From Arachnia propionica (GTDB taxonomy: Bacteria > Actinomycetota > Actinomycetes > Propionibacteriales > Propionibacteriaceae), in contig NZ_RQZG01000007.1 of assembly GCF_003859805.1 (NCBI RefSeq), positions 88,312 through 152,311 on the forward strand: a stretch of 64,000 bases of DNA, given 5' to 3'. Under the pieces are notes generated by a model that saw only the letters and a program-made list of their open reading frames with translations, had not been told where the DNA came from and ran no database searches. Shown piece by piece: positions 8,147 through 64,000 of the stretch; position 1 is the stretch's first letter; every line of letters starts with the position of its first letter. The translations under genes and the position numbers were made by a program.

Positions 8147-8395
8147 GAGGCGGGATTCTACGGCACACCCCACACGATGACCGCACGAACACCGGCGCGA
8201 CACGATTTACGCTCGACTTGCATAACCGAATTCATCTGGGTTAGGCTCGCCTCAGTGAACGACGTCGGAGACGTGTTCCGCGTCGGGAACAGGTGTTCAG
8301 GACCACCGCACGCGCGCTATGCCACAAGCGCCCCGCAGGCCCGCCGCGCCGCTCTTCTCTCTCCTTGGGGCGGAACGCGGCGGGTCTGCACTGTC

Positions 8396-9658: not shown

Positions 9659-9680
9659 GGCTCCATTCAACCAGCCGCAG

Positions 9681-10901: not shown

Positions 10902-10956
10902 GGCCTCATTCTTCACATGGGTGGGGTCATTCCACGAGACATCTGGGATGCAGCCG

Positions 10957-11448: not shown

Positions 11449-11543
11449 AGTCCACTCCTGTCACCAAGAACCGGTCCACTCTCGCAGAGTATCCACCATC
11501 CCACAAACCCGCGGCATGGGATCGTCGGGTCCGCTGCGGAGGA

Positions 11544-12806: not shown

Positions 12807-12859
12807 GGGTTCACCCCTGTCGTGAAAAAAATGTCAGACCCACCTGCAACCCTTGGACC

Positions 12860-14062: not shown

Positions 14063-15327
14063 CCACACTGCCCGAACTCGCCGCCCTGGTCCCCGACGCC
14101 CGTCTGAGGCTGACCGGGGTCGCACGCCAGACCCCCGTGGAGATCAACCTGCGCCTGACGGAGGCCACCGGCTCCGAGATCTGGGTCAAGCGGGAGGACC
14201 TGCAGCCGGTGCGTTCCTACAAGCTGCGCGGGGCCTACAACCTCATGGCGCAGCTGAGCGACGAGGCTCACGCGGCCGGGGTGGTGTGCGCCTCGGCGGG
14301 CAACCACGGGCAAGGGGTGGCGTTCGCCGCGGCAGCTCTGGGGATGACGGCCACCGTCGTGGTGCCGACCACGACACCTCGGCAGAAGCGGCAGCGCATC
14401 CAGGCACTGGGCCGGGGCCATGCGGAGCTGCTGCTGGAGGGTTCCACCTACGATCAGGCCTCGGAGGCGGCGGCTCGGCTGGCTGCCGAGCGCGGCAGCA
14501 CCGTCGTGCCGGCCTTCAACGACCCCCGGACGGCCGCCGGTCAGGCCACGGCCATCGCCGAGGCCATCGAGCAGCTGGGGTTCGTCCCGGATGTGGTGGT
14601 CCTGCCGGTGGGTGGCGGTGGTCTCCTGGCCGGAGCCGCATCCTGGCTCAGGACCCACCATCCGGAGGTGCGGATCGTCGGGGTGGAGCCCGACGGCGCC
14701 CCCTGCGTGGCAGCTGCGATCTCGGCGGGGCGCCCGTTCGCCCTGACCACCATCGACACCTTCGTCGACGGTGCCGCGGTCAGCCGGGTGGGCGACTTCA
14801 CCTTCGAGATCATCCGTCAGGCGGATGTCGAACTGACCCGGGTACCGGAGGGCCAGGTGTGCTCCGAGATGCTGGCGATGTACCAGAGTGACGGCATCAT
14901 CGCCGAACCCGCCGGGGCCCTGGCGGCCTCCTGCCTGCCGACCGGCGGGGTCGGTCCGAGGATCCACCTCCCCCACGGCTCGAAGGTGCTCAGCATCGTC
15001 TCCGGTGGCAACAACGACGTCTCCCGCTACGCGGAGGTGGTGGAGCGTTCCCTGGTGCACGAGGGCCGCAAGCACTACTTCCTGGTGGAGTTCCCGCAGG
15101 AGCCGGGGGCACTGCGTCGGTTCCTCGACGACGTGCTCGGCCCCGAGGACGACATCACCTACTTCGAGTACGTGAAACGCTCCAGCCGTGAGGTGGGCCC
15201 GGCCCTGGTGGGGGTGGAGCTGAGCAACCCGGGCGACTACCGCTTCCTCATGGATCGCATCGCCGAGTGCGGCATGCAGGTCTCCGAGGTCGACTCCACC
15301 AGCCCGTACTTCCGCTTCCTGGTCTGA
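14059..15327 (+). CDS. ilvA: Threonine ammonia-lyase (threonine dehydratase), short biosynthetic form with one C-terminal regulatory domain
   Basis: PLP-fold motifs: SYKLRGAYN (Lys) and GVVCASAGNHGQGVAFAA. It has a C-terminal ACT-like domain; 422 aa. It overlaps the rmuC stop by 4 nt. Confidence 0.9.
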   Translation: MTTLPELAALVPDARLRLTGVARQTPVEINLRLTEATGSEIWVKREDLQPVRSYKLRGAYNLMAQLSDEAHAAGVVCASAGNHGQGVAFAAAALGMTATVVVPTTTPRQKRQRIQALGRGHAELLLEGSTYDQASEAAARLAAERGSTVVPAFNDPRTAAGQATAIAEAIEQLGFVPDVVVLPVGGGGLLAGAASWLRTHHPEVRIVGVEPDGAPCVAAAISAGRPFALTTIDTFVDGAAVSRVGDFTFEIIRQADVELTRVPEGQVCSEMLAMYQSDGIIAEPAGALAASCLPTGGVGPRIHLPHGSKVLSIVSGGNNDVSRYAEVVERSLVHEGRKHYFLVEFPQEPGALRRFLDDVLGPEDDITYFEYVKRSSREVGPALVGVELSNPGDYRFLMDRIAECGMQVSEVDSTSPYFRFLV

Positions 15328-15734
15328 CAGGATCACGAGCCGCGGCGCGCCCCGCCCTGCGCCACGAGGTCGAGCACCCGCACGTCGCCCTTGGGAAGGA
15401 CCGATCATGGCGTACACGAACCGCCGCTCTGCTTCCCTGAGCCCGCCGATGACAACGCTGCCATGGAAGCAGGACGGCGGTTCGCGACCCTGGCAGTTTC
15501 GCCTGTCTCGTCCTGGCGTCAGCCACCCTGACCCACGAGGCCCGTTCCAGCAACAGCGGAGCAACCTACCCAGATCCGCTGTTACCGCCTGCCAGAACAC
15601 GCCTCCGCTTCTTCTCCGTTGGCCGAACCAGAGCGTGAGCACCAGCGAGCCATCCGAGACCAGACCTCTGCCCACGCTGCAGGACCTCGACTTGAGGGGG
15701 AATCCCACGGTGTCTCGGCACGGGCCTCCGCAAG

Positions 15735-16697
15735 CTACGTCAGGTCGTGCTTCTTGATGGCGCGGCGCAGTTCGGGTGGCAGCGCGAAGGTGAGGTTCTC
15801 CTCCGTCAGGCGCTCCTCCTCCGCCTTCGGGAAGCCCCGTTCCTCCAGGTGGTCGAGCACCCCCTGGACCAGTTCATCGGGCACCGAGGCACCGGAGGTG
15901 ACACCGACGGTCTCCACCCCGTCGAGCCACTCGGGCCGGATCTCTGAGGCGTAGTCGATGCGCTCGGAGCGCTTCGCCCCGGCCTCGAGCGCGACCTCCA
16001 CGAGCCGCACCGAGTTCGACGAGTTGCGCGAACCCACCACGATCATGAGATCCACCTTCGGCGCGATCTGCTTGACCGCCAGCTGCCGGTTCTGGGTGGC
16101 GTAGCAGATGTCGTCCGACGGCGGGTCCTGCAACAACGGGAACCGGGTCCGCAGCCGGGAGACGGTCTCCATGGTCTCGTCGACGCTCAGCGTGGTCTGC
16201 GACAGCCACACCAGGGGCTTGTCGGTGGGCATGTCGAGGTGGTCCACGTCGTCGGGATGCTCCACCAGGGTGGTCCGCTCCGGGGCCTCCCCCATCGTGC
16301 CCTCGACCTCCTCGTGTCCCGCGTGACCGATGAGCAGGATGTCGGTGTCCTGGCTGGCGAACCGCTTGGCCTCCCGGTGCACCTTGGTCACCAGCGGGCA
16401 GGTGGCATCGATGGTGCGCAGCTCCCGCCGGGCGGCCTCCTCGTGCACCGCCGGAGAGACCCCGTGGGCGGAGAAGACCACCAGGGCATCGGTGGGCACC
16501 TCGTCGAGCTCGTCGACGAAGATCGCCCCGCGCTGCTCCAGCGTCGAGACCACGTGCTTGTTGTGCACGATCTGCTTGCGCACGTACACGGGCGGGCCGT
16601 AGGTCTCCAGCGCCTTCTCGACGGTGACGACGGCGCGGTCGACCCCCGCGCAGTAGCCCCGGGGGGCCGCGACGATGACCCGCTTGGTGTTGCTCAT
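15735..16697 (-). CDS. ispH: 4-hydroxy-3-methylbut-2-enyl diphosphate reductase
   Basis: [19 protein letters not shown] is the N-terminal Cys ligand region, followed by further conserved IspH/LytB blocks. Start set at MSNTKR (16697). Confidence 0.9.
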
Positions 16698-16738
16698 GCG
16701 TGACAGTGTACGAGAGGTGACGAACCTGACCGCGTCGC

Positions 16739-17728
16739 TCAGCCGTCGTGACGGCGCATGAAGTCCAGCGCGGCGGCCCCGACCTCGTCGGGCTGCTCCA
16801 TGGGCAGCGAATGCGATGCGCCCGGCCACACCGTCGCCTCACCCACGGGAAGCAGGTCCGCACGGGCCGCTGCGACCACCGGGTCGGTCAGCACGGCGCT
16901 GTCCCCGGCCAGCGACACGTGGAGGGGCACCGGGTAGCCACGGAGCTGTTCGTCGCTGAACAGCTCGGGCAGGGACCGTGCGGAGGAGTACCCCTTGGTC
17001 CCGGCGTCGATGAGTTGAACCATCGTGTCATCGGGGTCGATGGGCCCTCCGCCGATCCGTTCTAGGGCCGCGTCCCGCCAGGACTGTGGCAGGAAGGGCA
17101 GCGCGGCGGGCAGGGCCTCGAACAGGACCTCCGGGCGCAACCCCGAGAGCACCTGCGCCGGGTCGAGAAGGGTCACCGACGCCACCCGCCCCGGCTCGTG
17201 ATACCCGAGGTTGGCAGCCAGCCAGCCACCGAACGAGTGCCCGACGACGTGGGCCCGGGACACACCGATCCCGTCGAGGGTCTGGCTGATCCACCGGGCC
17301 TGGTCCTGGCTCGAGACGATGGGAACGCTCTGATGACTCAGCCCCGCATCGCCCAGGGCGTCGAGGGCGTAGACGGGGCGATCGGCGGCGAGGACGGGCA
17401 GCAGTTCCCGCCACATGGGGATACCGGAGCCCCAGCCCGGGAGCAGCAGGATGGGAGTGGGGTCGCCGGTTCGGGGCCCGGGGAAGCGGACGATGTGGAC
17501 CATTCCCCAGTCGGTCGGCACATCCCAGGTCCGGTCCACCGGGGGCAGTTCAGCCATCAGTTTCTCGTAGGCGGCGACGTAGGCGTCGCGGCTGGAACGG
17601 CTGCGCCACCGTCCGATCTGCGGTCCGCGCGGCCACAGCAGCACCACGTTCAACAGCACGGACAGCACCAGAACCGTGACCATCCAACGGCGGCGACGCC
17701 GCGACTTGGTTTCTCGCTCCACAGCCAT
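16739..17728 (-). CDS. Alpha/beta-fold hydrolase
   Basis: N-terminal TM anchor and a nucleophile elbow VVGHSFGGW. Start set at MAVERE... Confidence 0.75.
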
Positions 17729-17780
17729 GACAATACAATTGCACTGTAACCGTTGCAGTGCAAGTGCATTGGAGGCACCC

Positions 17781-18338
17781 ATGCCGAGAATCGTCGACAC
17801 TGACGCCCGTCGCGACGAGATCTGCCGGGCCGTCTGGGCAGTCATCGCCCGCAACGGCATCGAGGCCGTCACGCTGCGCGCGGTGGCCCGTGCCGCCGGA
17901 GTCTCCGTGGGACGGATCCAGCACTACTACCCCAGCCGCGAGGAGATGCTGCACGACAGCTGCCGTCGGATTCTCGACCTCGCCGCCACCGTCGCCGACG
18001 ACACCCGGGGCACCGTCGCCGCACGACTCAGCCGCTGCCTCCACGCCCAGATCCCCACCACCCCACAGTTCGCCACAGGGGTCACCGTGTGGCTGAGCTT
18101 CGTCGCCCAGGGAGCCAGCGACCCGGGGATCGCTGAGCTTGTCCGCCACGGCCACGAGGCAGGGGTGGCGACGATCGCCGACCTTCTGCGCGACCTCGGG
18201 GCACCTCACCCCGAGCAGACGGCCCTGCACCTCCAGGCCCTTACCGAGGGTTTGGCCCTCCGCGTCACCTCGGGCAGCCTCAGCCCCGACGCGGCCATCT
18301 CGGCCCTGGATGAGGCCCTGGCCGCACTCACCCGATGA
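17781..18338 (+). CDS. TetR-family transcriptional regulator (divergent from the hydrolase gene)
   Basis: N-terminal HTH ICRAVWAVIARNGIEAVTLRAVARAAGVSVGRIQHYY, which is a TetR_N signature. Confidence 0.8.
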   Translation: MPRIVDTDARRDEICRAVWAVIARNGIEAVTLRAVARAAGVSVGRIQHYYPSREEMLHDSCRRILDLAATVADDTRGTVAARLSRCLHAQIPTTPQFATGVTVWLSFVAQGASDPGIAELVRHGHEAGVATIADLLRDLGAPHPEQTALHLQALTEGLALRVTSGSLSPDAAISALDEALAALTR

Positions 18339-19092
18339 CTGCCGGGACCAGGATGGCCGCCAGAATGAGTGTCGTGACGATCTCCCACCTCCCCAGGGCC
18401 TTGGCCGTCACCGGTCGGCCACGCATCGCCCCGAGCCAGGGCACGAGCCAGGCCCTGAGCGTCGTCGCCGCGAAGAAGGCGACCAGCCACCAGCGTCCCA
18501 GTCCGACGTCCCAGACGGCGAACAGCACCGTGAACGCCAGGTGCCAGGCCACGGAGTAGACGATGAAGTCGACGCGCCCCCGCTCCCGGATGTTGGTCTT
18601 GACGTAGAACACGGTGCCGAAGAAGTAGCCGAAGCACACCAGCGCCACCCCGTACAGCGTCGGACTCACCACCAGCGGCAGCAGACAGGCCGCGGCGACG
18701 GTGACCAGATCGGACAGCAGCGAACGTTCGTCGCGTCGCCACGAGAACCACAGTCCCGCTGCCGTGAGCGGGCCGAAGACCAGCCCCCAGACCCACCACT
18801 GGGGCTGCAGCGCCAGCAGCACGATCCCCAGTGCTGCGGTGATGCCGCCGTAGGTGGCGACGGCGTTGCGGTAGCGCGGCTTGAAGCGCGACTTCAGCCA
18901 CAGCCCGGCTGCGAAGAAGGCGAAGTAGCCGAGCAGCCAGGTCGGCCCCAGCACCGCGACGGCGGGGTGGAACTCACTCGAACCACCGGCCCAGATCAGC
19001 GCCAAAACGTAGGGCAGGAGGACCATCGCCCACGCCCCGTGGTGATTCGGGACCCACCCCTGGGAGCGCCCCCGGCCCTGTGCTCGCACCAT
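18328..19092 (-). CDS. Integral membrane protein (YwiC-like family)
   Basis: ~8 predicted TM helices, Trp/Leu-rich, no soluble domain. Confidence 0.5.
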   Translation of the reverse strand: MVRAQGRGRSQGWVPNHHGAWAMVLLPYVLALIWAGGSSEFHPAVAVLGPTWLLGYFAFFAAGLWLKSRFKPRYRNAVATYGGITAALGIVLLALQPQWWVWGLVFGPLTAAGLWFSWRRDERSLLSDLVTVAAACLLPLVVSPTLYGVALVCFGYFFGTVFYVKTNIRERGRVDFIVYSVAWHLAFTVLFAVWDVGLGRWWLVAFFAATTLRAWLVPWLGAMRGRPVTAKALGRWEIVTTLILAAILVPAVIG

Positions 19093-19153
19093 GCCCCGAT
19101 ACTAGGGACCCTGCGGTGAGCGGGGGGTTGCGGGGCAGGTCGTCGCGAAAACG

Positions 19154-20851
19154 TCACCGGTGGATGGCCAGCAGGATGCGCCATCCCCCCTTGGAGTTGT
19201 CCGCCCACTTCAGCAGCGTGGCTCCGCCGTCCCGGGTGCGGATGGTGTCCATGATGCTCCAGGACCCGGAGCTGTAGGACTCCCCCTCCGGGGTGGGGAG
19301 CGGAATCGGGGGAGCCAAGGGTTCGCCATCGCTTCTGGTAAGGGTCAGCTCCTCAGTGCCGAACAGACCCGGAACCCATGCATTCTCGGCCAGTGGATCA
19401 TTGCCCACACCCTTGCTCGCCTCGGGGGGTTCCCACGCCTGTCCGCTCCACGAATCCAGCATCTGCCCTGACTCGGAGGAGACGTAAACCGTCGGGAATC
19501 CGGTGAACGAGCCCCCGATCTCCGGATCGCCAGCAGGGGCCTGCAGCGTCTCCTGGGTCTCGATGTTGGTCCATCGGTTCGTCCCATCCGAGGGGTCGTG
19601 GACCAGGGTCCATCCCCGATACAGCTTCACTTGCTGCTCCGGCGGGTTCTTGACTCCTCGGTCCAGCTGGGCGACGACCTTTGTCGGCTCCTGATCCGAG
19701 ACCACATCCATCGGCCTCACAATGCAGTCCCCACACCCCGGCACTGGATCGTCAGCCGCCGAGATGTCAGGCAGCACCACCAGCCGGGACGAGCTGTTGG
19801 TCCCGGGCAGGAATTCCTGAGACCTCTTGGCCTCCCACTTCTGCTCCCCGGTGTGGATGTCGTAGGCGATCCGATCCACCACCACAACATGATCGGTCAC
19901 CGACACCCTCTCCTTGTCACAGGAAAAAGGAAGAACGAAACGCACCTGACCGGTGAGCCCATCCAGCACCGTGAGCACCCCCTGTTTCCCACCACAGGTG
20001 GCGAAGACCACGGTGGTACCGTCAGGGGACAGCACCAGCCGATCATCCCACCCCTCTGCGAGGAGGTACCCAGCCAACGGAAAATAGGCCTTCCGGCGCT
20101 GGAGCTGGTACTGCCACAGTTGCTCCCCCGTCTCACCGTCAACCCCGACGACGGTGTCATCGTCACTCAGGATCGGACCCCGAGCCCCCGGAACAACCTG
20201 CGTCCCATCCATCAGCTCCAAGGAGGTGAAGGTCGCCACCAACTCCCCCTTCACCGTGTCGTTCGGAAGCCGCCCCGGCATCCTCGGCACCTCTGCAGAA
20301 GCCTCAGCCGTGATGGAGAGCACCGGCGACAGATCAGCCGTGACCTTCTGCACCCCGAACCCAGCACCCGCCACCGCCAGCATCACGCCAGCCGCCACGG
20401 GCAACACCACCACACGCCCCCGCAGCCGCTCCTTCTCCGCCACCGGAATCATCACGAACAGCAGAACAACTCCAGCCCCCACCAAACAGCTGAACCCCAT
20501 CGCAGCCGCCGGATCAGGCCCCGCCCAGGTCAACGCTGTGGTGACGATGCGCCACGCCTGCACCGTCGCCGCGATCATCAGCCCCAGCCCCACCACACAG
20601 GCCACCCGCATCACACGAGAACGCAGGAACACCAGCGCCACCACCAACACCGCGACCCCGGACCCGAACAACGCCCACAACAACGCCGACAACTGACTCG
20701 GCCCAGACACCTCAGGGAATGCAGCTGCAAGCAGGAACCACAGACCAGCAGCCCCCAATCCCAGGCACACACCCACCAGACACGACCGCACCCACCGCCA
20801 CACCGCGCTGGCCCCGTCCCTCACTGTCTGCTTCGTCTCCATGCGGCCCAT
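19154..20851 (-). CDS. Membrane-anchored protein with PQQ-like beta-propeller repeats
   Basis: Several N-terminal TM helices, then repeated ...DG..LW.. beta-propeller-like segments (GEQLWQYQL, GEQKWEAK). Confidence 0.55.
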   Translation of the reverse strand: MGRMETKQTVRDGASAVWRWVRSCLVGVCLGLGAAGLWFLLAAAFPEVSGPSQLSALLWALFGSGVAVLVVALVFLRSRVMRVACVVGLGLMIAATVQAWRIVTTALTWAGPDPAAAMGFSCLVGAGVVLLFVMIPVAEKERLRGRVVVLPVAAGVMLAVAGAGFGVQKVTADLSPVLSITAEASAEVPRMPGRLPNDTVKGELVATFTSLELMDGTQVVPGARGPILSDDDTVVGVDGETGEQLWQYQLQRRKAYFPLAGYLLAEGWDDRLVLSPDGTTVVFATCGGKQGVLTVLDGLTGQVRFVLPFSCDKERVSVTDHVVVVDRIAYDIHTGEQKWEAKRSQEFLPGTNSSSRLVVLPDISAADDPVPGCGDCIVRPMDVVSDQEPTKVVAQLDRGVKNPPEQQVKLYRGWTLVHDPSDGTNRWTNIETQETLQAPAGDPEIGGSFTGFPTVYVSSESGQMLDSWSGQAWEPPEASKGVGNDPLAENAWVPGLFGTEELTLTRSDGEPLAPPIPLPTPEGESYSSGSWSIMDTIRTRDGGATLLKWADNSKGGWRILLAIHR

Positions 20852-20884
20852 TCTGCTTCACACAAGGGGCACCCCGAGCGTGCA

Positions 20885-20995
20885 CCAACTGGCGGGTTGC
20901 TTGCGCGAGGTCGCGATGTCAACGCTGCCAACAAAGCAGAACGGCGATTCGTGCTCGAGGGGACGGCGCGGACCGGCGGGCGGTTCGATGAGCGA
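20885..20995. repeat. Interspersed ~100-nt intergenic element, copy A
   Basis: AACTGGCGGGTTGCTTGCGCGAGGTCGCGATGTCAACGCTGCCAACAAAGCAGAACGGCGATTCGTGCTCGAGGGGACGG...; compare copies B and C. Confidence 0.8.
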
Positions 20996-21026
20996 GCGGG
21001 CCGACGGGGACAGGGCGCGGGGGCGG

Positions 21027-21398
21027 TCAGTCGCCGCGACGGTTGTTCAGGGCCGCGGCGAAGTTCACCATCACGATCCCGACCCACGCCAGCGCGCCCG
21101 CGAAGAAACCGCCCGTCGAGAAGGCGATGGCGGTCAGCGGGATCGCCAGGGCCAAGGAGATGACCGCCAGTATCGTGCTCTGCGTCTTCTCGGCCTTTCG
21201 CTGACGTCCGGGAACCACACCGAACTGCTGCTCGTGGGCGCGGGTCAGCGGCCCGGTGGTCTGGCCCTGCTGCCTGCGGACCTCCGCCAGCACCTTCTCG
21301 GCGAACGAGTCCACCAGTGCCGGCTCCATCTCAGGGCCCAGATCCTGGCGGGCCTTCAGCACGGCTTCGAACTCGGACTTGTCCAGTGGCTCCGTCAT
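21027..21398 (-). CDS. Small membrane protein (hypothetical)
   Basis: 123 aa, with a soluble N-terminal half and two C-terminal TM helices. Confidence 0.5.
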   Translation of the reverse strand: MTEPLDKSEFEAVLKARQDLGPEMEPALVDSFAEKVLAEVRRQQGQTTGPLTRAHEQQFGVVPGRQRKAEKTQSTILAVISLALAIPLTAIAFSTGGFFAGALAWVGIVMVNFAAALNNRRGD

Positions 21399-21454
21399 GG
21401 GTCAAGTCTAGATCCGGGGTCCCAAGAGCCGCCTCGGGCCCCTTCCAACCCGTG

Positions 21455-21550
21455 CAGGAACCGCCGGTCTGCCTGCACGAGACGTCGATGTCAACGCTGC
21501 CAAACAAGCAGAACGGCGATTCGTGCTCGGATGGGACGGTGGGCGGTTTC
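21455..21550. repeat. Interspersed ~100-nt intergenic element, copy B (more diverged)
   Basis: ...GCCTGCACGAGACGTCGATGTCAACGCTGCCAAACAAGCAGAACGGCGATTCGTGCTCGGATGGGACGGTGGGCGG... Confidence 0.8.
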
Positions 21551-21641
21551 AGAACCTCAGAAACAGGTGGTGGCGTCGGAACGCCGGGGAACCGACGGTT
21601 CGTGCCCCCTGATCGTCGGGTCCTCGGGATAGGCTCAGGTC

Positions 21642-22853
21642 ATGGCGATGTCCAGTTCCCCCGAGAGTCCCCAGGCCCTGTCCCGGGTCGTGGGGGCCGT
21701 CGCCGACTGGGTCGGTCGGCTCGGTGAGATCTGGGTCAGCGCCCAGGTCATCGAGATCAAACGCCGCAGCTACGCCACCCAGTTCCTCACCCTGCGTGAC
21801 CGCACCGTCGACATCTCCTGCTCCGTCACCACGACGGCGTTCGTGCTGGACGCCGCCGGTCCGATCCCCGAGGGCTCCGAGGTGATCGCCCGGTTGAGGC
21901 CCAGGGTGTGGGAGCGCAGCGGTTCCCTCAACTTCGAGTGCCTGGAGCTGCAGGTCGCAGGCACGGGCCGTCTCCTGGCAGAGCTCGACCACCGTCGCCG
22001 CGCACTCCAGGCCGAGGGCCTGTTCGACCCGCACCGCAAACGCCCCGTGCCCTTCCTGCCCCGCCGCATCGGGCTCATCACCGGCAAGGGCTCCGACGCC
22101 GAACGCGACGTGCTGCGCAACACCCGCCGTCGCTGGCCCGCCGTCTTCGAGATCGAGCACACCCTCGTCCAGGGCCCGCAGGCCGCCACCCAGATCATCA
22201 CCTCCCTGCGGCACCTCGACGAGCACCCCGAGGTGGATGTCATCGTCATCGCCCGCGGCGGCGGCTCCCTGGAGGACCTGCTGCCGTTCTCCGACGAGGG
22301 CCTGGTCCGGGCCGTCGCCGCCTGCCGCACCCCGGTCGTCTCCGCGATCGGACACGAATCCGACGCCCCCTTGATCGACTTCGCCGCCGATCTGCGTGCC
22401 TCCACCCCCACCGATGCCGCAGCCAGGATCGTGCCGGAGCTCGACGCCGAGGAACAGTTCCTCACCCAGGCCCGGCAGCGGCTGCAGGGTGCCGTCGAGA
22501 CCTTCCTGCAGCGCTGCGAACAGGAGCTGGCCGGGCTGCGTGCCCGACCCGTGCTGGCCTCCCCGCTGGCGGCCCTGAGCGGACACACCGACCGCCTGGC
22601 GCTGCTCCGACTTCAGCTGCGTGCCGCCGTCGAGCGCCGTCTGGCCGCTGAGCAGAGCCAACTGGACGCCCACCTGCAGGTGGTGCGGGCGCTGTCCCCG
22701 CAGGCGACGCTGCAACGCGGCTACTCCCTGCTGACCGCCGGCACCACCCCCGTCACCGCCGCCACCGCCCGGGTGGGTGAGACGATCACCGCTCATCTCG
22801 CCGACGGCGAACTGGACCTGAAGGTCACCGCGACAAGGAGCACCGATGAGTGA
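21642..22853 (+). CDS. xseA: Exodeoxyribonuclease VII large subunit
   Basis: OB-fold N-terminus followed by catalytic-domain blocks (GLITGKGSDAERDV, VIVIARGGGSLEDL). 403 aa. Confidence 0.9.
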   Translation: MAMSSSPESPQALSRVVGAVADWVGRLGEIWVSAQVIEIKRRSYATQFLTLRDRTVDISCSVTTTAFVLDAAGPIPEGSEVIARLRPRVWERSGSLNFECLELQVAGTGRLLAELDHRRRALQAEGLFDPHRKRPVPFLPRRIGLITGKGSDAERDVLRNTRRRWPAVFEIEHTLVQGPQAATQIITSLRHLDEHPEVDVIVIARGGGSLEDLLPFSDEGLVRAVAACRTPVVSAIGHESDAPLIDFAADLRASTPTDAAARIVPELDAEEQFLTQARQRLQGAVETFLQRCEQELAGLRARPVLASPLAALSGHTDRLALLRLQLRAAVERRLAAEQSQLDAHLQVVRALSPQATLQRGYSLLTAGTTPVTAATARVGETITAHLADGELDLKVTATRSTDE

Positions 22854-56413: not shown

Positions 56414-56480
56414 GCCTCCCATCCTTGCGCACTTCACGGAGGTTCGAGACTGGACTGCCACAGATGGCAGAATGTGACCC

Positions 56481-57263
56481 ATGTCCAACAACCAGTGGAA
56501 CGGCGCCCAGGATTGGAACGCCCAGCCCCAGCACAACAACCCCCAGGAATGGGGCGCCCAGCCGGCCCAGGATTGGAACGCCCAGCAGCCCCAGCAGCAC
56601 GACTGGGGTCAGTCCTCCCAGGACTGGAGTGCCCAGCCCGCCCAGCAGCAGGACTGGAGCGCCCAGCCCGCCACCCATCAGCCAACCTCCGACGACTGGA
56701 CCACGATCTCCGCCGGGCAGAGCCAGCAGTCGGCCTCCCAGGCCGCCTCCCCGCAGAGCGCCTCCAGCGAGTGGAGCCTCGACCAGTCCGTGCCCGCCAC
56801 CGAGCAGACCACCTGGACCGGTGCCCCGCCCGCCGCGGCCGCTCCTGAGCAGCCCGCCCAGGCCTGGGGCCAGCCTGCCCAGCAGCAGGACTGGAACGCC
56901 CAGCAGGCCCCGCAGCAGCAGTGGGGGCAGCAGGCCGCCTACGGTGCCCCGCAGCAGCAGTGGGGTGGCCAGCCCGCCCAGGCCCAGCCGAACCTGTTCT
57001 CGGCCCTGTTCGACTTCAAGTTCAGCCAGAAGGTGGCCAAGGCCGCCCCGGGCGTGGCCTACATGATCATCCTGATCGTGCTGGCCGTCGAGGCCCTGTT
57101 CAGGATCATCGGGGTGTTCAGCCCCTACGCGACCGGGACGAGCATCGTCTCCGGCCTGTTCGTCGCCCTGGCGCAGTTCGTGCTGTGGGCCATCGTCTGG
57201 CGTGTCGTCATCGAAGGTGTCGTGGCGCTGGTGAAGATCGCCGACAAGGACGACCAGTCCTGA
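56481..57263 (+). CDS. DUF4282-like membrane protein with a Gln/Trp-rich low-complexity N-terminal region
   Basis: Repeated QDW(N/S)AQP units over ~170 aa, then 3 TM helices. Confidence 0.55.
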   Translation: MSNNQWNGAQDWNAQPQHNNPQEWGAQPAQDWNAQQPQQHDWGQSSQDWSAQPAQQQDWSAQPATHQPTSDDWTTISAGQSQQSASQAASPQSASSEWSLDQSVPATEQTTWTGAPPAAAAPEQPAQAWGQPAQQQDWNAQQAPQQQWGQQAAYGAPQQQWGGQPAQAQPNLFSALFDFKFSQKVAKAAPGVAYMIILIVLAVEALFRIIGVFSPYATGTSIVSGLFVALAQFVLWAIVWRVVIEGVVALVKIADKDDQS

Positions 57264-57373
57264 CCCGCTGACCCCGACCCGGCAAGGCCCCGAGATGATC
57301 TCGGGGCCTTGTCCGTGCTCACCGACGCCCTGGTGTCCTTTCCCGCGATCCGCGCAGGGACCGGTCAACAGGG

Positions 57374-58795
57374 TCAGAACAGCAGCGCCAGGGCCGGTTC
57401 GGCCAGGATCTCCGCCACGTCGTGGAGGAAGCGGGAGCCCTGCTCGCCGTCGATGATCCGGTGGTCGAAGGCGATGGACAAGGTGGTCACCCAGCGCGGC
57501 ACCACCTGTTCCCTCCCGCCCTCGACGACCACCCAGGGGCGACGCTGGATGGCCCCCATGCAGAAGATGGCCGACTCGTCGCCGTTGATGATCGGGGTGC
57601 CGCCGTCGATGCCGAAGACCCCGACGTTGGTGATGGTGAAGGTGCCACCCGAGTAGTCGGCGGGCTGCAGCCTGCCCTCCCGGGAGACCGCGACGAGCTG
57701 GTTGATCGCCCGGCACAGCTCCAGCAGGCTCAGTTCCTGCGCGGCCTTGATGTTCGGCACCATGAGGCCACGCGGTGTGGCGGCGGCGATGCCGAGGTTC
57801 ACGTCGCCGTGGAAGACGATCTCCTGCGCGTCGTCGTCCCACGAGGTGTTGAGCTCGGGGTTGCGGCCGAGCGCCAGGCAGATGGCCTTGGCGTAGATGA
57901 GCAGCGGCGAGATGCGCAGTCCCGCGAATTCGCGGCGCGTCTTGAGGGTCTCGACGAAGTCCATCGTGCCGGTGACGTCGACGGTGATCCACTCGGTGAC
58001 GTGGACGTGGGTGTTCACCGAACGCACCATCGCCTCCGCCGTGACCTTCCGCACCCCCTTGATGGGGACGCGGCGCTCCCCCCTGCCCCTGGGGCGACGT
58101 CCCCCGAGGTCGCTCGGCCCGGTGGGGCCGTTGCTCGCGGCGTCGTTGAGCACGGTGCCGGTGGCGGGTTCCTGCTGGAACGCCCAGGCCGCCTTGACGT
58201 CCTCGCGCGTGACGGTGCCGCCGATCCCGGTGCCGACGACGGTGCGCAGGTCCACCCCCAGGTCCTTCGCGAACTGCCTCACGGGGGGTTTCGCCCGCAC
58301 CCCGTCGGGGTCGCTGGCCAGGACCAGGCTGGACTCGACGGGGGCCTCCCCGGCCTCGGGCAGTGGTTCGCCGACGGGTTCGGCCACCACCGGTTCGGCC
58401 GGGGCCACGTCGTCGGCGCGCCGGGAGGGTTCCCGGGGTTCGTAGGCTGCCTCGACGGCCTCACGGAGCCGGGTGGTGTCCCGGCTGGGCGCGGAGGAGC
58501 GACGTCGACGGCGTGGGGTCTCCTCGGCGGGGCCGTAGCCCACCAGGGTGGCCTCGGTGCCGTCGTCGATCTCGACGATGCCGGAACCCACCTCCACGGT
58601 GGTGCCCTCGGCCACGAGCAGCGCCGTGATGGTCCCGGCCCAGGGTGAGGGCAGCTCCACGAGGGATTTCGCGGTCTCGATCTCGACCAGCACGTCGTTG
58701 ACCTCGATCACCTGGCCGACGGTGACCCGCCAGGCGACGATCTCGGCCTCGGTGAGGCCCTCGCCGGGGTCGGGGAGCAGGAAGGTGCGTTTCAT
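57374..58795 (-). CDS. 2-oxoacid dehydrogenase E2 component (dihydrolipoamide acyltransferase)
   Basis: Lipoyl domain (EIETAKSLVELPSPWAG), an E3-binding region, and a catalytic domain with DHRIIDG. Confidence 0.9.
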   Translation of the reverse strand: MKRTFLLPDPGEGLTEAEIVAWRVTVGQVIEVNDVLVEIETAKSLVELPSPWAGTITALLVAEGTTVEVGSGIVEIDDGTEATLVGYGPAEETPRRRRRSSAPSRDTTRLREAVEAAYEPREPSRRADDVAPAEPVVAEPVGEPLPEAGEAPVESSLVLASDPDGVRAKPPVRQFAKDLGVDLRTVVGTGIGGTVTREDVKAAWAFQQEPATGTVLNDAASNGPTGPSDLGGRRPRGRGERRVPIKGVRKVTAEAMVRSVNTHVHVTEWITVDVTGTMDFVETLKTRREFAGLRISPLLIYAKAICLALGRNPELNTSWDDDAQEIVFHGDVNLGIAAATPRGLMVPNIKAAQELSLLELCRAINQLVAVSREGRLQPADYSGGTFTITNVGVFGIDGGTPIINGDESAIFCMGAIQRRPWVVVEGGREQVVPRWVTTLSIAFDHRIIDGEQGSRFLHDVAEILAEPALALLF

Positions 58796-58814
58796 CGGGG
58801 CTCCTTGGTGTTCT

Positions 58815-59792
58815 CTAGTACTGCAGGGACTGGTCGACGGCGTCGAGGATGCGGTCGATGCCGGGCAGGAATTCCTGCTCGACCCGGGCGGGCGGGTAGG
58901 GCATGTCGTAGCCGGTGACCCGCTTCACGGGGGCCTCCATCTGGTAGAAGAGGTCCTCGTGGAGGCGGGCCGCGATCTCGGCGCCCAGCCCCAGGGTGCG
59001 GGGGGCCTCGTGCACGACGACGGCGCGGCGGGTGCGTCGTACGGAGGCGGTGAGGCTCACCCAGTCGACGGGGGCGAGGGTGCGCAGGTCCACCACCTCC
59101 AGGCTGGTGCCCTCCTGCTCCGCGACGGCGGCCGCGTCGAGGCAGGTGCGCACCATCGGTCCCCACGCCAGCAGCGTGACGTCCTGGCCGGAGCGCACCA
59201 CCTCCGCCTGGTGGAGGGGTGCGGGACGGCGTTCGGCGGCGACGGTGCCCTTGGTGTGGTAGCGACGTTTCGGTTCGAGGAAGATCACCGGGTCGGGGCT
59301 GGCGATGGCCTGTTGGATCATCCAGTAGCCGTCGTGCGGGGTGGCGGGTGAGACCACCTTCAGCCCGGGGGTGTGGCAGAAGTAGGCCTCGGGGGATTCG
59401 GAGTGGTGCTCGACGGCACCGATGCCACCGCCGTAGGGGATGCGGATCACCATGGGCACGGGTTGTCTGCCGGCGGTTCGGGCGTGGAGTTTCGCCACCT
59501 GGGTGACGATCTGGTCGAAGGCGGGGAAGACGAAGCCGTCGAACTGGATCTCGACGACGGGGCGGTAGCCGCGCATCGCCAGGCCGACGGCGGTGCCGAC
59601 GATGCCGGACTCGGCCAGCGGGGAGTCGATGACGCGGTTGGGGCCGAATTCAGCCTGGAGGCCTTCGGTGACGCGGAACACCCCGCCGAGCTGGCCGATG
59701 TCCTCCCCGGCCAGCAGCACCTTGGGGTCGGCCTGGAGGGCGCGGCGCAGTCCTGCGTTGATGGCCCTCGCCAAGCTCAGTTGCTGGCTCAT
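58815..59792 (-). CDS. 2-oxoacid dehydrogenase E1 component beta subunit
   Basis: Transketolase-like pyrimidine-binding and C-terminal domains. RBS GAGGAGGAG before ATG. Start overlaps the E1alpha stop. Confidence 0.9.
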   Translation of the reverse strand: MSQQLSLARAINAGLRRALQADPKVLLAGEDIGQLGGVFRVTEGLQAEFGPNRVIDSPLAESGIVGTAVGLAMRGYRPVVEIQFDGFVFPAFDQIVTQVAKLHARTAGRQPVPMVIRIPYGGGIGAVEHHSESPEAYFCHTPGLKVVSPATPHDGYWMIQQAIASPDPVIFLEPKRRYHTKGTVAAERRPAPLHQAEVVRSGQDVTLLAWGPMVRTCLDAAAVAEQEGTSLEVVDLRTLAPVDWVSLTASVRRTRRAVVVHEAPRTLGLGAEIAARLHEDLFYQMEAPVKRVTGYDMPYPPARVEQEFLPGIDRILDAVDQSLQY

Positions 59793-60883
59793 TACTCCTC
59801 CTCGGCCGCCCAAGCGGCGTGTTCTCGGCGCTGTGCCTCCAGCGCGACGGTGTTCTCGGCGTGGACGTTGTCGAAGAGTTCGTCCATGGTCAGGTCCCGC
59901 AACGTCGGGATGGCGGCGCGGATGTCGGCCCCGAACTGGCGGGCCTCCTCGTCGAGTCCGGCCAGCCAGGCGTCGTCGATGAGTCCTGCGGTGCGCAGGT
60001 GGGTGGTCAGCCGGGTGATGGGGTCGCGTCCCGCCCAGCTGCGGGTCTCCTCGTCGGCCCGGTACTTGGTGGGGTCGTCGGAGGTGGTGTGGGCGCCCAT
60101 GCGGTAGGTGAAGGCCTCGATGAAGGTGGGGCCCTCCCCTCGGTGGGCACGCTCCAGGGCCCAGCGGGTGACGGCGTGGACGGCGAGCACGTCGTTGCCG
60201 TCGACGCGGACGCCGGGGAAGCCGAAGCCGTGGGCACGCTGGTAGAGGGGGATGCGGGACTGCAGGGCGATGGGTTCGGAGATGGCCCACTGGTTGTTCT
60301 GGCAGAAGAACACGACAGGGGCGTTGTAGCTGGCGGCGAAGACGTAAGCCTCGTTGACGTCGCCCTGGGAGCTGGCGCCGTCGCCGTGGTAGGCGATGGT
60401 CGCGGCGTTGGGGCCGTCCTGGTTGCCGACGAGACCGTCGAGCTGGAGCCCCATGGCGTAGCCGGTGGCGTGGAGGGTCTGGGAGCCGATGATGATCTGG
60501 TAGTTGCGGAACCGGTCGAGGTGGTCCCAGGCCCCGGCGTCGGAGCCGCGGAACAGGGCGAGGAGTTGCTGGAAGGGAAGCCCCAGGGTGAGGAAGACGG
60601 CGTGTTCCCGGTAGGTGGGGAAGACGACGTCGAGGTCGCCGAGGGCGTGGGCCGATCCCACCTGGGCGGCTTCCTGGCCGAGAACCGGGGGCCAGAGGCC
60701 CAGTTCGCCGTGGCGTTGCAGGGCGGTCGCCTCGGTGTCGAAACGTCTGGCCAGCACCATGTCCCGCAGCCAGGCGGGCAGGTCCTCGTCGGGGCGTTCG
60801 AAGGTGAACTCGTCGTGCTCGCGTCGCTCGCCCTCGGGGGTGAGCAGCTGCACCATCTCGGTGGACATCGCCGCTTCGGTCAT
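59792..60883 (-). CDS. 2-oxoacid dehydrogenase E1 component alpha subunit (TPP-dependent)
   Basis: TPP-binding GDGASSQGDVNEA...NN. RBS GGGAGG before the MTEAAM start. Confidence 0.9.
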   Translation of the reverse strand: MTEAAMSTEMVQLLTPEGERREHDEFTFERPDEDLPAWLRDMVLARRFDTEATALQRHGELGLWPPVLGQEAAQVGSAHALGDLDVVFPTYREHAVFLTLGLPFQQLLALFRGSDAGAWDHLDRFRNYQIIIGSQTLHATGYAMGLQLDGLVGNQDGPNAATIAYHGDGASSQGDVNEAYVFAASYNAPVVFFCQNNQWAISEPIALQSRIPLYQRAHGFGFPGVRVDGNDVLAVHAVTRWALERAHRGEGPTFIEAFTYRMGAHTTSDDPTKYRADEETRSWAGRDPITRLTTHLRTAGLIDDAWLAGLDEEARQFGADIRAAIPTLRDLTMDELFDNVHAENTVALEAQRREHAAWAAEEE

Positions 60884-61108
60884 TCGGCCTCCCATCACAA
60901 ACCTACGCTTCCGTAGCCTACGCTCCCGTAGGTTGACGCCGGGGGTGGGCGCCCCACAACATCCCGGCTCTCTTTTGTGGGATTCCACCATCCCAGCGCC
61001 CACCCGGGGCGCCTCGGCGTCATCCTTTTGGTCGTCGCACTGGGTGGGGGTGGTGGTTCACGTTTAGGGTGTCGGGGTCACGGCTTCGCGGCGAGAGGGG
61101 TCCTGAGG

Positions 61109-61504
61109 ATGACACAGTGGCAGATTGATCCTGCTGGGGTGCAGGGTGTGCTGGAGCGCGCCAGGGTGGCTCAGGAGGAGTTGGGCACGGCGTTGGACCC
61201 GGGGAGTTTCGACGCCCCGGTGGCGGCGTTGTCATGGTGCCCGGAGTTGACCGGTGGGATTCCGGAGGCGTTGGGGCTGGTGCTGGAGTCCCGGCTCGGG
61301 GAGTTCAAGGCGATCGTGAACCATGTCTCGGCCGGGATCGTGGGGGTGACCGCGGCGTCGAACACGTACCTGGACGCGCAGACCGAGATGGACGCCTCGG
61401 TGCGTGCGACGCAGGCGTCGCAGGTGGAGGAGGAGATGATGCGGGCGGCCGAGACGGGGAACTTCTCGTTCTTCGAGAAGATGGCCACCGGGGAGTCGTC
61501 GTGA
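61109..61504 (+). CDS. Small helical protein (DUF6507-like?), upstream partner of the large effector-like gene
   Basis: RBS GAGGA before ATG 61109. 132 aa, MTQWQIDPAGVQGVL.... Its stop TGA overlaps the GTG start of the next ORF (GTGA). Confidence 0.55.
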   Translation: MTQWQIDPAGVQGVLERARVAQEELGTALDPGSFDAPVAALSWCPELTGGIPEALGLVLESRLGEFKAIVNHVSAGIVGVTAASNTYLDAQTEMDASVRATQASQVEEEMMRAAETGNFSFFEKMATGESS

Positions 61505-64000
61505 GTGATGGGCTGATCGATCCTGATGCCTTCGTGTGCCGGGCCGAGGGGTTGGATCCGGATGCGATCTTCGAGGCCGGTTCCCAGATCTGGGCCGTCG
61601 GCTCGAACATCTCGGACAAGGTGCATGCGGTTGACGGGGTGTGGCAGGAGCTGCGTGGGGTGTACCGCTCACCGGATGAGGAGATGGTCTACGGGGTGAT
61701 GAAGCGTGCGACCTGGCCTGCGGCGTTGATCCGTGCGGACCTGGTCGCGGCCGCGAAGGCGATCCGGGACTTCGCCGAGGAGTTGCGGGCGATCAAGCCC
61801 GCGTTGGAGCAGGTTGAGCAGGAGGCCCGTGCGTTCCGTGCTGAGGCGCTGGAAGGGTATCTGGAGCTTGTCGGGAACATCTACGACAGCCGGAATGCTG
61901 CTGATCATGATCCGGCGGAGTTGGCCCAGATGGGGTTGTTCGAGGGGCCGCTGCGGCAGCAGAAGACACACTGGAAACGGCATCAGCACGCGGTGGACAC
62001 CAACAATGAGCTGTTGGCCCGTTACAACCAGTTGTTCGAGCAGGTGCTCAACGCCGCGCGGAGCTGTGAGAACGCGATCCGTCGTTTGGGTTCTCACCAT
62101 GAGACCTGTCTGGCCCCGGCACCGGGTTTGGATGAGGGGTTCCACGAGTTGGGGGAGTATCCGTGGGGCACGAAGGTCGAACGCACGTCCCGTCATGCTG
62201 GTGAGTCGATCATGCGTGGCGCCGGAAACGTCATCAAGGGTGGGTTCTATGGATTCATGGCTCACCTCGGGATGGACCAGGAGGGCAGGTTCTCCTTGGA
62301 CACCATGGGGCAGACGTGGCATGCCACCGGGCATTTCTGGTGGCTGACCGGCGAGGTGGTGATCCGGGGTTTCGGGGTTCAGAGGATCGGTGAGGAGGAT
62401 CCGGAGTACACGGCGAAACTCAATGAGGCCGCAACCTTGTGGGGCGACATGATCAAGTGGGACCACCAGGCCCACCTCGCTGGGGAGAATGGTTGGCACG
62501 CCTATGAGGAGGATCCGGTCCAGGCCTGGACCGAGACCATTCTGGGCGCCGGTGTGGTGGGTGCCGGGTCCAAGCTCCTGCTTCGCGGTGCCAGGGTTCC
62601 CCGCGGCCTGCCCTCACACCTGGCCCCCGGGATCGAGCACGTCGCGAAGACCGTGGACACCCTCACCCAACCACTGCACCGTTTCCGGCAAGGGGTCACG
62701 CGTTTCGGTGTCGACCACGTGATCACCCCCTTGGAGGAACGGCTGCGCCACGTGGCCAGCCAGGCCAAGCATGGTCTGGAGAACCTCACCGACCCCTGGC
62801 GCAACACCGTCCCGGCCGGGGCACACACACGTGGCGGAGGCGGGGCGTGGAACGACCACACCACCTTCAATCAGGCCCACAATCACCACGGCGGTGGCCA
62901 TCACACCCCGGACCTCGATCAACCCACGCCCAGACGAGCCGCACCACCCATCGACATCGACACCCCGGACGCCGAACCACCGAGGCGGACCGACCGCTAC
63001 GGCAACGACCTCTCCGTGGACCACAAGGGCGATCCCGTCATCCAGGACCGAGGCGACGGCCGACTCCACTACGCCAGCGACCCAGAAGGCACCTTCCGGG
63101 ACACCGACAACCCGGACAACCTCCGCAACCCGGGCGGGAAGTTCAACGAGAACCCCTACGCCCCACCACCGGGAGAGATCACACACCCCGCCACCTGGCA
63201 AGGAGAACTCACCGACCAACCACTCAGCAACATCTATGACAACGCACACCAGCTCACCGAATCGTGGGACGCCGCCCGCGACGCCGCAGCCAAAGCCCGC
63301 GACGCAGCAGCAGGCACCCCCCAAGCTGTCAAACGATGGATCCCAGAAGCCGAAAACCTCACAAACAAAGAACTGATACAGGAGCTAACAAACAGAATTG
63401 ATGAGGGAGATTTAGATCCTTCGACACAAGCCCACCTCGAGACCCAGCGAGACATACTTAGGCATACAACCGAAAAAGATAGCCTTCTACGTAAAATCTC
63501 AGAATGGGCAGGCGACTATGGAGGCCAGAGGCATCTCGAGTCGCAGGGGCGTCAGGTAATCTCCGGACGCGCCGGGGAATCCCCCGATACGCATGTCTCT
63601 CCTGGGAGGGACGAGTTGGACCAGACCGGGATCAGCGGCCCGGACATCACGCCCCCAGAGGCCGGGAAAGACACCCCACGGCCAAAACGCTACGAGATCA
63701 CCTTCCAGGAGAACAAGGGCGGCAACATCAGCAAGACCCAACTCGGTACCCGAGGCGGCGCACAACAAGGCTCACTACCCTACCTCACATCCATCCTCGA
63801 AGCCCAGAACCCCAACGGCCGCTTCCTGGGCGACCTCAAGCGCCTCAAGACCTCAGGACAGTACCCAGGCTTCTTCAAAGCCCTCGAACGCGGAGAGGTC
63901 ATCGTCCGCTACCAGTACACCAACACCCGCACCAACGGCACCCTCCGCACCGGAGAATTCAACCTCGGACCAGAGGTACGGCTACACTGGGACGGCAACA
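61501..64000 (+). CDS. Large (>830 aa, 3'-truncated by window) secreted/polymorphic-toxin-like protein
   Basis: Manual translation from the GTG at 61501 runs without any stop to the window end (VSDGLIDPDAFVCRAEGLDPDAIFEAGSQIWAVGS...). GC3 is high as in bona fide genes, except for an AT-rich patch at ~63340..63520. It is missing from the ORF track, presumably because no stop codon occurs in the window. Confidence 0.6.
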   Translation, partial: MSDGLIDPDAFVCRAEGLDPDAIFEAGSQIWAVGSNISDKVHAVDGVWQELRGVYRSPDEEMVYGVMKRATWPAALIRADLVAAAKAIRDFAEELRAIKPALEQVEQEARAFRAEALEGYLELVGNIYDSRNAADHDPAELAQMGLFEGPLRQQKTHWKRHQHAVDTNNELLARYNQLFEQVLNAARSCENAIRRLGSHHETCLAPAPGLDEGFHELGEYPWGTKVERTSRHAGESIMRGAGNVIKGGFYGFMAHLGMDQEGRFSLDTMGQTWHATGHFWWLTGEVVIRGFGVQRIGEEDPEYTAKLNEAATLWGDMIKWDHQAHLAGENGWHAYEEDPVQAWTETILGAGVVGAGSKLLLRGARVPRGLPSHLAPGIEHVAKTVDTLTQPLHRFRQGVTRFGVDHVITPLEERLRHVASQAKHGLENLTDPWRNTVPAGAHTRGGGGAWNDHTTFNQAHNHHGGGHHTPDLDQPTPRRAAPPIDIDTPDAEPPRRTDRYGNDLSVDHKGDPVIQDRGDGRLHYASDPEGTFRDTDNPDNLRNPGGKFNENPYAPPPGEITHPATWQGELTDQPLSNIYDNAHQLTESWDAARDAAAKARDAAAGTPQAVKRWIPEAENLTNKELIQELTNRIDEGDLDPSTQAHLETQRDILRHTTEKDSLLRKISEWAGDYGGQRHLESQGRQVISGRAGESPDTHVSPGRDELDQTGISGPDITPPEAGKDTPRPKRYEITFQENKGGNISKTQLGTRGGAQQGSLPYLTSILEAQNPNGRFLGDLKRLKTSGQYPGFFKALERGEVIVRYQYTNTRTNGTLRTGEFNLGPEVRLHWDGN

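Follow-up and report, generated by a model that had tools for sequence, protein, structure and literature searches.

The window analysed here, a 64,000-nucleotide stretch of Arachnia propionica DNA (contig NZ_RQZG01000007.1, positions 88,312 to 152,311, forward strand), ends within a pair of overlapping genes: a small gene of the DUF6507 family and a large open frame whose product has the architecture of a polymorphic toxin. The small gene starts with the ATG at 61109, and its TGA (61502-61504) overlaps the GTG start of the large gene in the sequence GTGA; from that GTG, at 61501, the +1 frame contains 833 open codons, up to base 63999. The favoured explanation as a whole, to which a probability of roughly 0.7 is assigned, is that the window ends inside a polymorphic toxin-immunity island, in which a predicted exported toxin with a nuclease-like C-terminus and a short hypervariable cassette would be followed by immunity genes and by displaced copies of its own 3' end. 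That the locus is a polymorphic toxin-immunity system is itself regarded as very probable.

An earlier note, made from the letters of this stretch, had taken the large frame for a real gene, and it proved to be one: seven homologs were retrieved by a word-indexed search, complete homologs (835 to 861 amino acids) align with the window protein from end to end, and the protein is 100% identical to the NCBI entry [quoted passage not shown]. Since that entry comes from a contig of 152,311 nucleotides, the frame runs off the end of the contig and not merely of the window. The overlap with the small gene and the open end were likewise as described there, with 131 residues for the small protein. The compared contigs are numbered L001 to L021 and the retrieved proteins carry P numbers; residue numbers are those of the window's large protein. 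L001 is an independent assembly of the window's strain, L002 is another A. propionica sample, and L016 is a contig of another A. propionica genome that has the same upstream genes and is 98.2% identical to window positions 56471-64000. The syntenic ortholog in L016 has 844 amino acids and ends in NNTLTLTPQEPS before its stop, which places the stop of the window's gene 11 codons past 64000, at about 64035 (33 nucleotides beyond the window); the gene does not run a further 3-5 kb.

A profile of the seven homologs was compared with 1.84 billion cluster representatives (E <= 0.001) and matched 926 proteins. Among the 150 listed, nearly all match only profile positions ~3-325, and these relatives, which share the N-terminal domain (N-domain), are proteins of 500 to 1,400 amino acids. 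The C-termini of 58 such relatives included Tox-REase-5 (10), Endonuclea_NS_2 (6, EssD-like), GH-E (6), Ntox15 (5), and TNT (1), and sorted into at least 6 multi-member clusters and 12 singletons. Some relatives, in Pseudoclavibacter and Leucobacter, are named [quoted passage not shown] or "polymorphic toxin type 15 domain-containing protein". A common N-domain joined to unrelated toxin domains in the sampled relatives is the polymorphic-toxin architecture suspected from the letters alone. The N-domain lacks a Pfam model in those 58 relatives too. It is closed by a conserved WDHQAHLAGENGWHAYEEDP block (62458-62517), and its W48 is invariant at a WxG-like position, where the consensus in most relatives is W-x-G. 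In the AlphaFold2 (AF2) model the N-domain forms long helices (20-50, 71-118, and 162-202), and its top meaningful Foldseek match was PPE41 (4w4k_B; probability 0.98, E 0.4, target-normalised TM 0.51). It is probably a secretion- or trafficking-type helical domain. Scans of the large protein in Pfam, NCBIfam, and PADLOC gave noise only, and neither it nor the DUF6507 protein matched WXG100 (PF06013) or LXG (PF04740) at E <= 1; one relative, P0012, had a weak WXG100 match (E 0.028). A word-indexed protein search with the N-domain profile recovered only P0003.

The C-terminal module (C-module; residues ~496-844) recurs in about 30 of the 154 proteins retrieved at that stage and, with its RYGN block, also occurs in proteins that match the N-domain profile partly or not at all (P0012 and P0047). 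The RYGN...DRGDGRLHYASDPEGTFRD region, within residues 496-625, shows the best DNA-level conservation between clades, and the predicted catalytic domain that follows the hypervariable patch is more conserved than any other part of the protein. In a comparison of 15 distant members, E737, K739, Q756, G757, Y761, R774, Y804, G813, and F820 are invariant and D707 is nearly so. The candidate catalytic codons are those of D707 (63619-63621), E737 (63709-63711), and K739 (63715-63717), alongside the conserved Q756/G757 (63766-63771) and Y761 (63781-63783). The AF2 model of the module (predicted local distance difference test score [pLDDT] 86, predicted TM score 0.77) begins with a poorly predicted, beta-rich part, followed by a helical hairpin and an alpha-beta-beta-beta-alpha-beta core, in which strand 2 opens with D707 and strand 3 carries E737-x-K739, the arrangement required of a PD-(D/E)xK nuclease. 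The C-terminal ~170 amino acids can be predicted, with somewhat better than even odds, to be such a nuclease, and the C-domain can be proposed with moderate confidence as a new family of restriction-endonuclease-fold toxin domains. It had no Pfam match in the window protein or in 10 relatives that share it. Membership in Tox-REase-5 (PF15648) was rejected: there was no profile match, and hhalign of the C-domain against the relatives that bear Tox-REase-5 gave a probability of 0.45% and aligned only the ExK strand. One family of orphan fragments, P0011, keeps 63% identity and has all three candidate catalytic residues replaced (D707 by G, E737 by V, and K739 by E).

Table 1. Features of the toxin locus in the window and of the accessory genes at compared loci.
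Feature	Position	Strand	Basis
Shine-Dalgarno-like GAGAGGGG, 8 nt before the DUF6507 start codon	61094..61101	+	read in sequence
DUF6507 gene, 131 aa; small, putatively helical protein, predicted secretion partner or targeting factor	61109..61504	+	Pfam PF20117
Polymorphic-toxin gene, partial (833 of 844 codons)	61501..64000	+	open frame; EII34_07930; L016 ortholog
N-terminal domain, residues 1-350	61501..62550	+	profile search; no Pfam or NCBIfam model; AF2; Foldseek
Linker, residues 351-495, Gly/His/Pro-rich, poorly conserved	62551..62985	+	homolog alignment
C-terminal module start, residues 496-625: RYGN...DRGDGRLHYASDPEGTFRD block (63067-63102), then helices	62986..63375	+	
Hypervariable AT-rich cassette, residues 626-677, including conserved SEWxGD (63499-63516)	63376..63531	+	
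Predicted PD-(D/E)xK-type nuclease core, residues ~664-833, final 11 codons missing	63490..64000	+	
Segment recurring downstream as orphan 3' fragments	63493..64000	+	L016 repeats
Accessory gene set	L016 13822-15671; L014 3866-5715; L005 13521-15364		
Accessory gene set	L008 15710-16992; L015 5875-7293; L018 and L021 8194-9548		

Just before the predicted catalytic core lies an internal helical hairpin (helices 127-140 and 145-186 in the numbering of the C-module AF2 model) encoded by AT-rich DNA. The G+C content of third codon positions (GC3) along the large frame is 0.63-0.93 and drops abruptly to 0.40-0.47 at 63301-63525, so that the profile is not uniform, as the earlier note had anticipated. 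In 180-nucleotide windows, the G+C (GC) content at 63326-63519 is 0.44-0.45 against a 64-kb mean of 0.690 +/- 0.042 (z = -5.7); this patch is the lowest-GC stretch of the whole window and its sole place below 0.50. Divergence between strains spans about 63355-63560, with recombination breakpoints predicted at 63337-63375 on the left and at 63532-63620 on the right; in the flanks, identity among three A. propionica strains is 98-100%. Nucleotide identity between the window and L002 is 97-100% upstream, 90% at the 5' edge (63295-63384), and 40-51% in 63355-63504, where there are no indels; downstream it is 88-92%, rising to 98-99%. For L016 the patch is 53-58% identical and the flanks are mostly 95-100%, with two windows at 0.88. 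At the protein level, identity with L002 is 1.00 in the N-domain, 1.00 in the linker, 0.98 in the segment preceding the patch, 0.35 in the patch, and 0.96 in the core. For close pairs from the other clade, no C-terminal segment varies more than the patch: L008 and L009 have an identity of 0.71 there, 0.92 and 0.94 in its flanks, and 0.66 in the first immunity gene.

The five patch alleles of the window's clade are all AT-rich (GC 0.37-0.49), of equal length, and of the same helical pattern, with SEWxGD kept. Low GC content is therefore a lasting feature of this segment, not the trace of a single recent import, and the proposal of a recent horizontal acquisition is not sustained. A segment has indeed been exchanged between near-identical strains, and comparison of orthologous loci did reveal cassette variation, as had been suggested; it concerns an internal stretch of ~52 residues and not a C-terminal module or toxin tip. 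Within the locus, AT-richness in the window's clade is confined to the cassette and the immunity genes. An assembly artefact was rejected, the patch being identical in L001 and AT-rich in L002, L013, L014, and L016. A pattern search of metagenome DNA for further patch alleles found none. On the simplest reading, patch and immunity gene change in step around a conserved core, and the patch would be the surface recognised by the immunity protein; that it sets immunity specificity is put forward tentatively, at a little under even odds.

The gene is also a compositional mosaic in its GC skew at four-fold sites, which is +0.55 in the DUF6507 gene, +0.22 in the N-domain, and -0.27 in the linker, with values of -0.63 to -0.66 for the C-module, against -0.05 +/- 0.21 (range -0.50 to +0.40) in background genes. 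The skew flips near 62550, where the shared N-domain ends and the linker starts; L013 shows the flip too, L005 shows it more weakly, and the L008 clade lacks it. Modules that differ in strand history may have been joined here.

Downstream of the toxin, a DUF6301 homolog overlaps or abuts the stop codon in all 10 loci with downstream sequence, including L016. A candidate immunity gene had been expected just after the toxin, and all orthologs and paralogs with available downstream DNA have one; the DUF6301 proteins would confer immunity. Within the window's clade the DUF6301 genes are highly divergent (33-53% identity) and have a GC content of 0.42-0.50. In L016 the toxin is followed by a coupled 149-residue DUF6301 gene, an IS630-like transposase gene, an IS3-like fragment, and a first orphan fragment comprising the last ~540 nucleotides of the toxin (10709-11216, 92.5% identical to window positions 63493-64000) with its own DUF6301 gene. 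A second orphan (11711-11974, 95% identical to window positions 63737-64000) is accompanied by a degenerate DUF6301 gene, and TY-Chap3, DUF6177, and a 109-residue protein gene come after it. The L016 interval 8142-10596, between the first immunity gene and the orphans, contains the IS630-like (DDE_3) transposase gene and the IS3-like fragments (IS, insertion sequence). A further orphan, EII34_15675, on a 2,384-nucleotide contig of the same assembly as the window, is 94% identical to residues 707-830.

Arrays of DUF6301 genes were found in L008, L016, L009, and L011. The most regular, in L008 (12220-15700), consists of four tandem units of ~815 nucleotides, each combining the last 300 nucleotides of the toxin (87-92% identical) with a DUF6301 gene (71-83%), and it terminates in a partial toxin fragment (residues 686-783). 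In L011 (1349-7594), a truncated toxin gene is followed, over about 6 kb, by at least five DUF6301 homologs, which look like an immunity-gene island. In the first L016 orphan, the final ~12 residues of a patch allele survive ahead of an insertion-sequence junction, and P0011, P0198, and P0207 are 232-residue orphan fragments, on several metagenome contigs, that keep the complete hypervariable hairpin; the remnant and the whole patch in the P0011 orphans indicate that the displaced 3' ends originally included the patch. Five independent assemblies, L001, L002, L004, and L006 among them, break inside or just after the gene, probably because the toxin 3' end is repeated downstream.

The small upstream protein matches Pfam PF20117 (DUF6507) with an E value of 2.4e-10 and 41.4 bits (cut-off 25). 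The large gene has a DUF6507 homolog as its immediate upstream neighbour in 11 of 12 independent loci (L004/L006, L005, L008, L012, L013, L015, L016, L017, L018, L019, and L021), L009 being the exception, so the pair does co-occur in other genomes, as had been predicted. This two-gene unit, conserved across Actinomycetota, was found at paralogous loci of A. propionica, in two genomes of related Propionibacteriaceae, in [Pseudopropionibacterium] massiliense, and on four metagenome contigs; a Streptomyces yangpuensis plasmid also carries the pair, and its large gene is annotated "YwqJ-related putative deaminase". Of the idea that a small helper of the WXG100 or DUF type is paired with a secreted toxin, the adjacent partner gene was borne out, as DUF6507; neither protein has a Pfam WXG100 or LXG match. 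DUF6507 is predicted to be a secretion partner or targeting factor of the toxin. Both proteins open with a similar motif, (W/L)xI(D/N)P, in MTQWQIDPAGV (61109-61135) and MSDGLIDPDAF (61501-61530), and this motif is invariant or nearly so in the two families.

Upstream of the DUF6507 gene, two tandem, internally palindromic, operator-like 15-mers, CCTACGCTTCCGTAG and CCTACGCTCCCGTAG, occupy 60902-60931 in the divergent intergenic region between a branched-chain keto-acid dehydrogenase operon and the DUF6507 gene. That intergenic region contained no sigma-70-like promoter, RNA family, or significant fold, and a structured leader RNA in 60895-61115 was rejected (fold z-score -0.45; no Rfam match in 60500-64000).

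A conserved accessory set of DUF6177, a 109-residue protein, and TY-Chap3 was found alongside the toxin genes of Streptomyces, Propionibacteriaceae, and metagenome contigs; TY-Chap3 is absent from the set in L008, L015, and L018, and the order in L018 and L021 is DUF6177, 109-residue protein, DUF6507, toxin. TY-Chap3 is a member of a predicted peptide-binding chaperone superfamily (PMC9503650). DUF6177 had no sequence relative in the PDB. In oral Schaalia, candidate Esx substrates are encoded beside a small WXG100-like hairpin gene (PMC13622651). Export of the toxin by ESX (type VII) secretion is considered the likelier route, by a modest degree. Type VII secretion system (T7SS) core genes, whose presence had been suggested as a check, were found near one paralog in a related genome and at no other paralog seen: the L009 paralog (region 10001-22634) lies 3-10 kb from ESX-type genes, namely a Peptidase_S8 (mycosin-like subtilase) gene (15665-16876), a pair of WXG100 genes (19768-20391), and an EccD-like gene (21294-22634), the last of these weak at 29.4 bits, below the Pfam cut-off of 30. 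The likeness to PE/PPE or Lap/LXG pairs is a lead and not a demonstration.

Together these features suggest the following course of events. DUF6507 would pair with the helical N-domain, in the manner of PE/PPE or Lap/LXG, to make an ESX substrate, and the neighbouring TY-Chap3, DUF6177, and 109-residue proteins may assist export. The predicted C-terminal PD-(D/E)xK nuclease would then kill neighbouring cells, with the DUF6301 proteins acting as immunity proteins, and the hypervariable hairpin, packed against the nuclease core, would be the surface seen by the cognate immunity protein. Toxin and immunity specificity would diversify jointly around an unchanging catalytic core. Recombination of a new cassette into the gene would push the old 3' ends and their immunity genes downstream, where the cell would keep them as protection against neighbours with older toxin variants. 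A stronger form of the proposal, that the hairpin is a self-contained specificity cassette whose swap with the matching DUF6301 gene re-keys a constant nuclease, and that the whole set is an undescribed, widespread family of actinobacterial ESX effectors, is speculative and, taken entire, rather unlikely.

Several results weigh against this interpretation. Neither the N-domain nor the C-domain has a Pfam, NCBIfam, or PDB sequence match; PDB sequence-profile searches with the whole protein, the C-module, and DUF6177 gave nothing significant, and neither did Foldseek comparisons of the N-domain and C-module models with the PDB. The N-domain model is of moderate confidence (pLDDT 69), and the window protein reads W48-Q-E, with Glu in place of the Gly of WxG. 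Conservation of a YxxxD/E export motif in DUF6507 is not clear: Y87 is invariant, and homologs have Q, D, or Q four residues further on (+4). The sole ESX-linked paralog, L009, is also the sole locus without DUF6507, and a tblastn search of L018 and L021 with that locus's four ESX proteins (EccD-like, subtilase, and two WXG100) was negative; this search did not extend to the window. Covariation of cassette and immunity gene comes from a handful of phylogenetically related pairs, and the immunity gene of the window's own allele lies past the contig end.

The same observations can be read in other ways. The extreme composition of the patch, its replacement between near-identical strains, and the AT-rich immunity genes downstream would all fit a foreign toxin tip recently imported from a low-GC donor. 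The patch, however, lies upstream of the catalytic domain, and the domain that follows it is the most conserved and high in GC again; moreover, the shared length, helices, SEWxGD, and AT-richness of the five alleles mark them as old homologous forms of one segment and not as unrelated foreign domains, which makes such an import improbable. A patch that is short, sharply bounded, A-rich, and set inside a conserved gene also recalls the target of a diversity-generating retroelement or of other targeted hypermutation, a reading that deserves scarcely any credence: no template-repeat copy of the patch was present in the 64-kb window or the fetched loci, no reverse transcriptase was among the called genes of the orthologous locus in L016, and the alleles are 40-58% identical, all four bases being subject to change and A being invariant in several columns, a poor fit to adenine-specific mutagenesis. 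The candidate was rejected on the lack of a second patch copy and on substitutions that are not A-specific.

Two further alternatives concern what the protein does. It might be a non-toxic ESX-type surface or secreted protein, comparable to PPE or AesB, with a C-domain that binds and DUF6301 as its chaperone or partner; in keeping with this, the sequence matches no nuclease family, the Foldseek results were not significant, and an Esx effector without an enzymatic domain has been described in oral Actinomycetaceae (PMC13622651). This, too, appears to be improbable. The protein might instead be an intracellular defence or abortive-infection nuclease, or part of a toxin-antitoxin module, and not a secreted effector, since PD-(D/E)xK nucleases such as HamA are defence effectors and the tblastn searches of L018 and L021 with the ESX proteins of L009 were negative. 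Against that possibility, which is held to be quite improbable, there was no PADLOC match, the long helical N-domain shared with EssD-like, TNT, and Ntox15 toxins and the small helical partner form an exported-toxin architecture, and orphan cassette arrays are typical of interbacterial toxins.

The toxin-immunity interpretation can be set beside several known systems. In the LXG/Lap and EsaD-EsaG systems (type VIIb, Bacillota), small helical partner genes lie upstream and an immunity gene downstream, and Bacillota T7SS immunity genes occur as tandem strings, made up of non-identical paralogs, whose evolution proceeds by recombination (PMC9484751, PMC10653861, 10.1101/2022.07.06.499029). The present locus resembles them in its helical N-terminal delivery domain, variable C-terminal toxin, upstream partner, and downstream candidate immunity gene; it differs in having no Pfam LXG or WXG100 match, an Actinomycetota host with ESX (T7SSa), a DUF6507 partner, and arrays that interleave copies of the toxin 3' end with immunity genes. 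PE25-PPE41-EspG5 of mycobacterial ESX-5 likewise has a small helical partner upstream and a chaperone-like gene nearby (here TY-Chap3), whereas there is no sequence similarity to PPE41 (Foldseek E 0.4; model pLDDT 69), and PPE proteins do not belong to the polymorphic toxins with immunity genes. In oral Schaalia odontolytica, AesA-AesB and other candidate Esx substrates (PMC13622651, a 2026 preprint) share with the present locus the oral Actinomycetota host, an N-terminal helical bundle (predicted here), and an adjoining small WXG100-like gene. AesB, however, ends in a disordered Gly-rich region without an enzymatic domain or immunity gene, whereas the toxin here ends in a folded nuclease-like domain with immunity-like arrays.

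In Rhs and CdiA systems, 5'-truncated toxin 3' ends with their own immunity genes lie downstream, and the whole toxin domain differs between cassettes. The orphan 3' copies and immunity genes found here, interspersed with insertion sequences, resemble that displacement model, but the orphan catalytic core is 92-95% identical to the main gene, and variation resides in the ~52 residues and the immunity genes. E-type colicin DNases and their Im proteins combine a conserved nuclease core (HNH) with a small hypervariable surface patch that sets immunity specificity, an arrangement like the one proposed for the present toxin; the fold predicted here is PD-(D/E)xK and not HNH, and contact between patch and immunity protein is a prediction in the present case. 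Tox-REase-5 (PF15648) shares the predicted PD-(D/E)xK fold and the ExK strand and occurs on paralogs with the same N-domain. DUF6507, DUF6301, and DUF6177 were not mentioned in the literature searched. What is new relative to these systems is a delivery domain and a warhead without a Pfam or NCBIfam model and a short internal variable cassette.

Elsewhere in the window, the first ~6 kb has a lower GC content (0.63-0.65) than the remainder and may be an integrated element. A 518-residue frame on the reverse strand (5495-7051), starting ...AAIYLRISQDREMDGLAIDR, bears a resemblance to a large serine recombinase.

The locus represents a candidate family of ESX-exported antibacterial toxins, composed of a delivery domain (>900 protein clusters), a dedicated DUF6507 partner, conserved accessory genes, a nuclease-like warhead, and a candidate immunity family, DUF6301. 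To our knowledge, the antibacterial toxins of actinobacterial ESX systems are almost unexplored experimentally. Because the three natural A. propionica alleles differ essentially only in the 52-residue cassette, they constitute a ready-made experiment on toxin-immunity specificity. If the specificity-cassette proposal is true, this mode of toxin diversification would be distinct from whole-domain swapping, and AT-richness would mark sequences that are too fast-changing or too divergent to be homogenised to high GC content. A. propionica, an oral commensal, hosts Saccharibacteria (PMC7651992), and ESX effectors have recently been implicated in defence in an oral setting that hosts Saccharibacteria (PMC13622651, PMC7651992); the oral members of the family might, on the same proposal, target Saccharibacteria epibionts.

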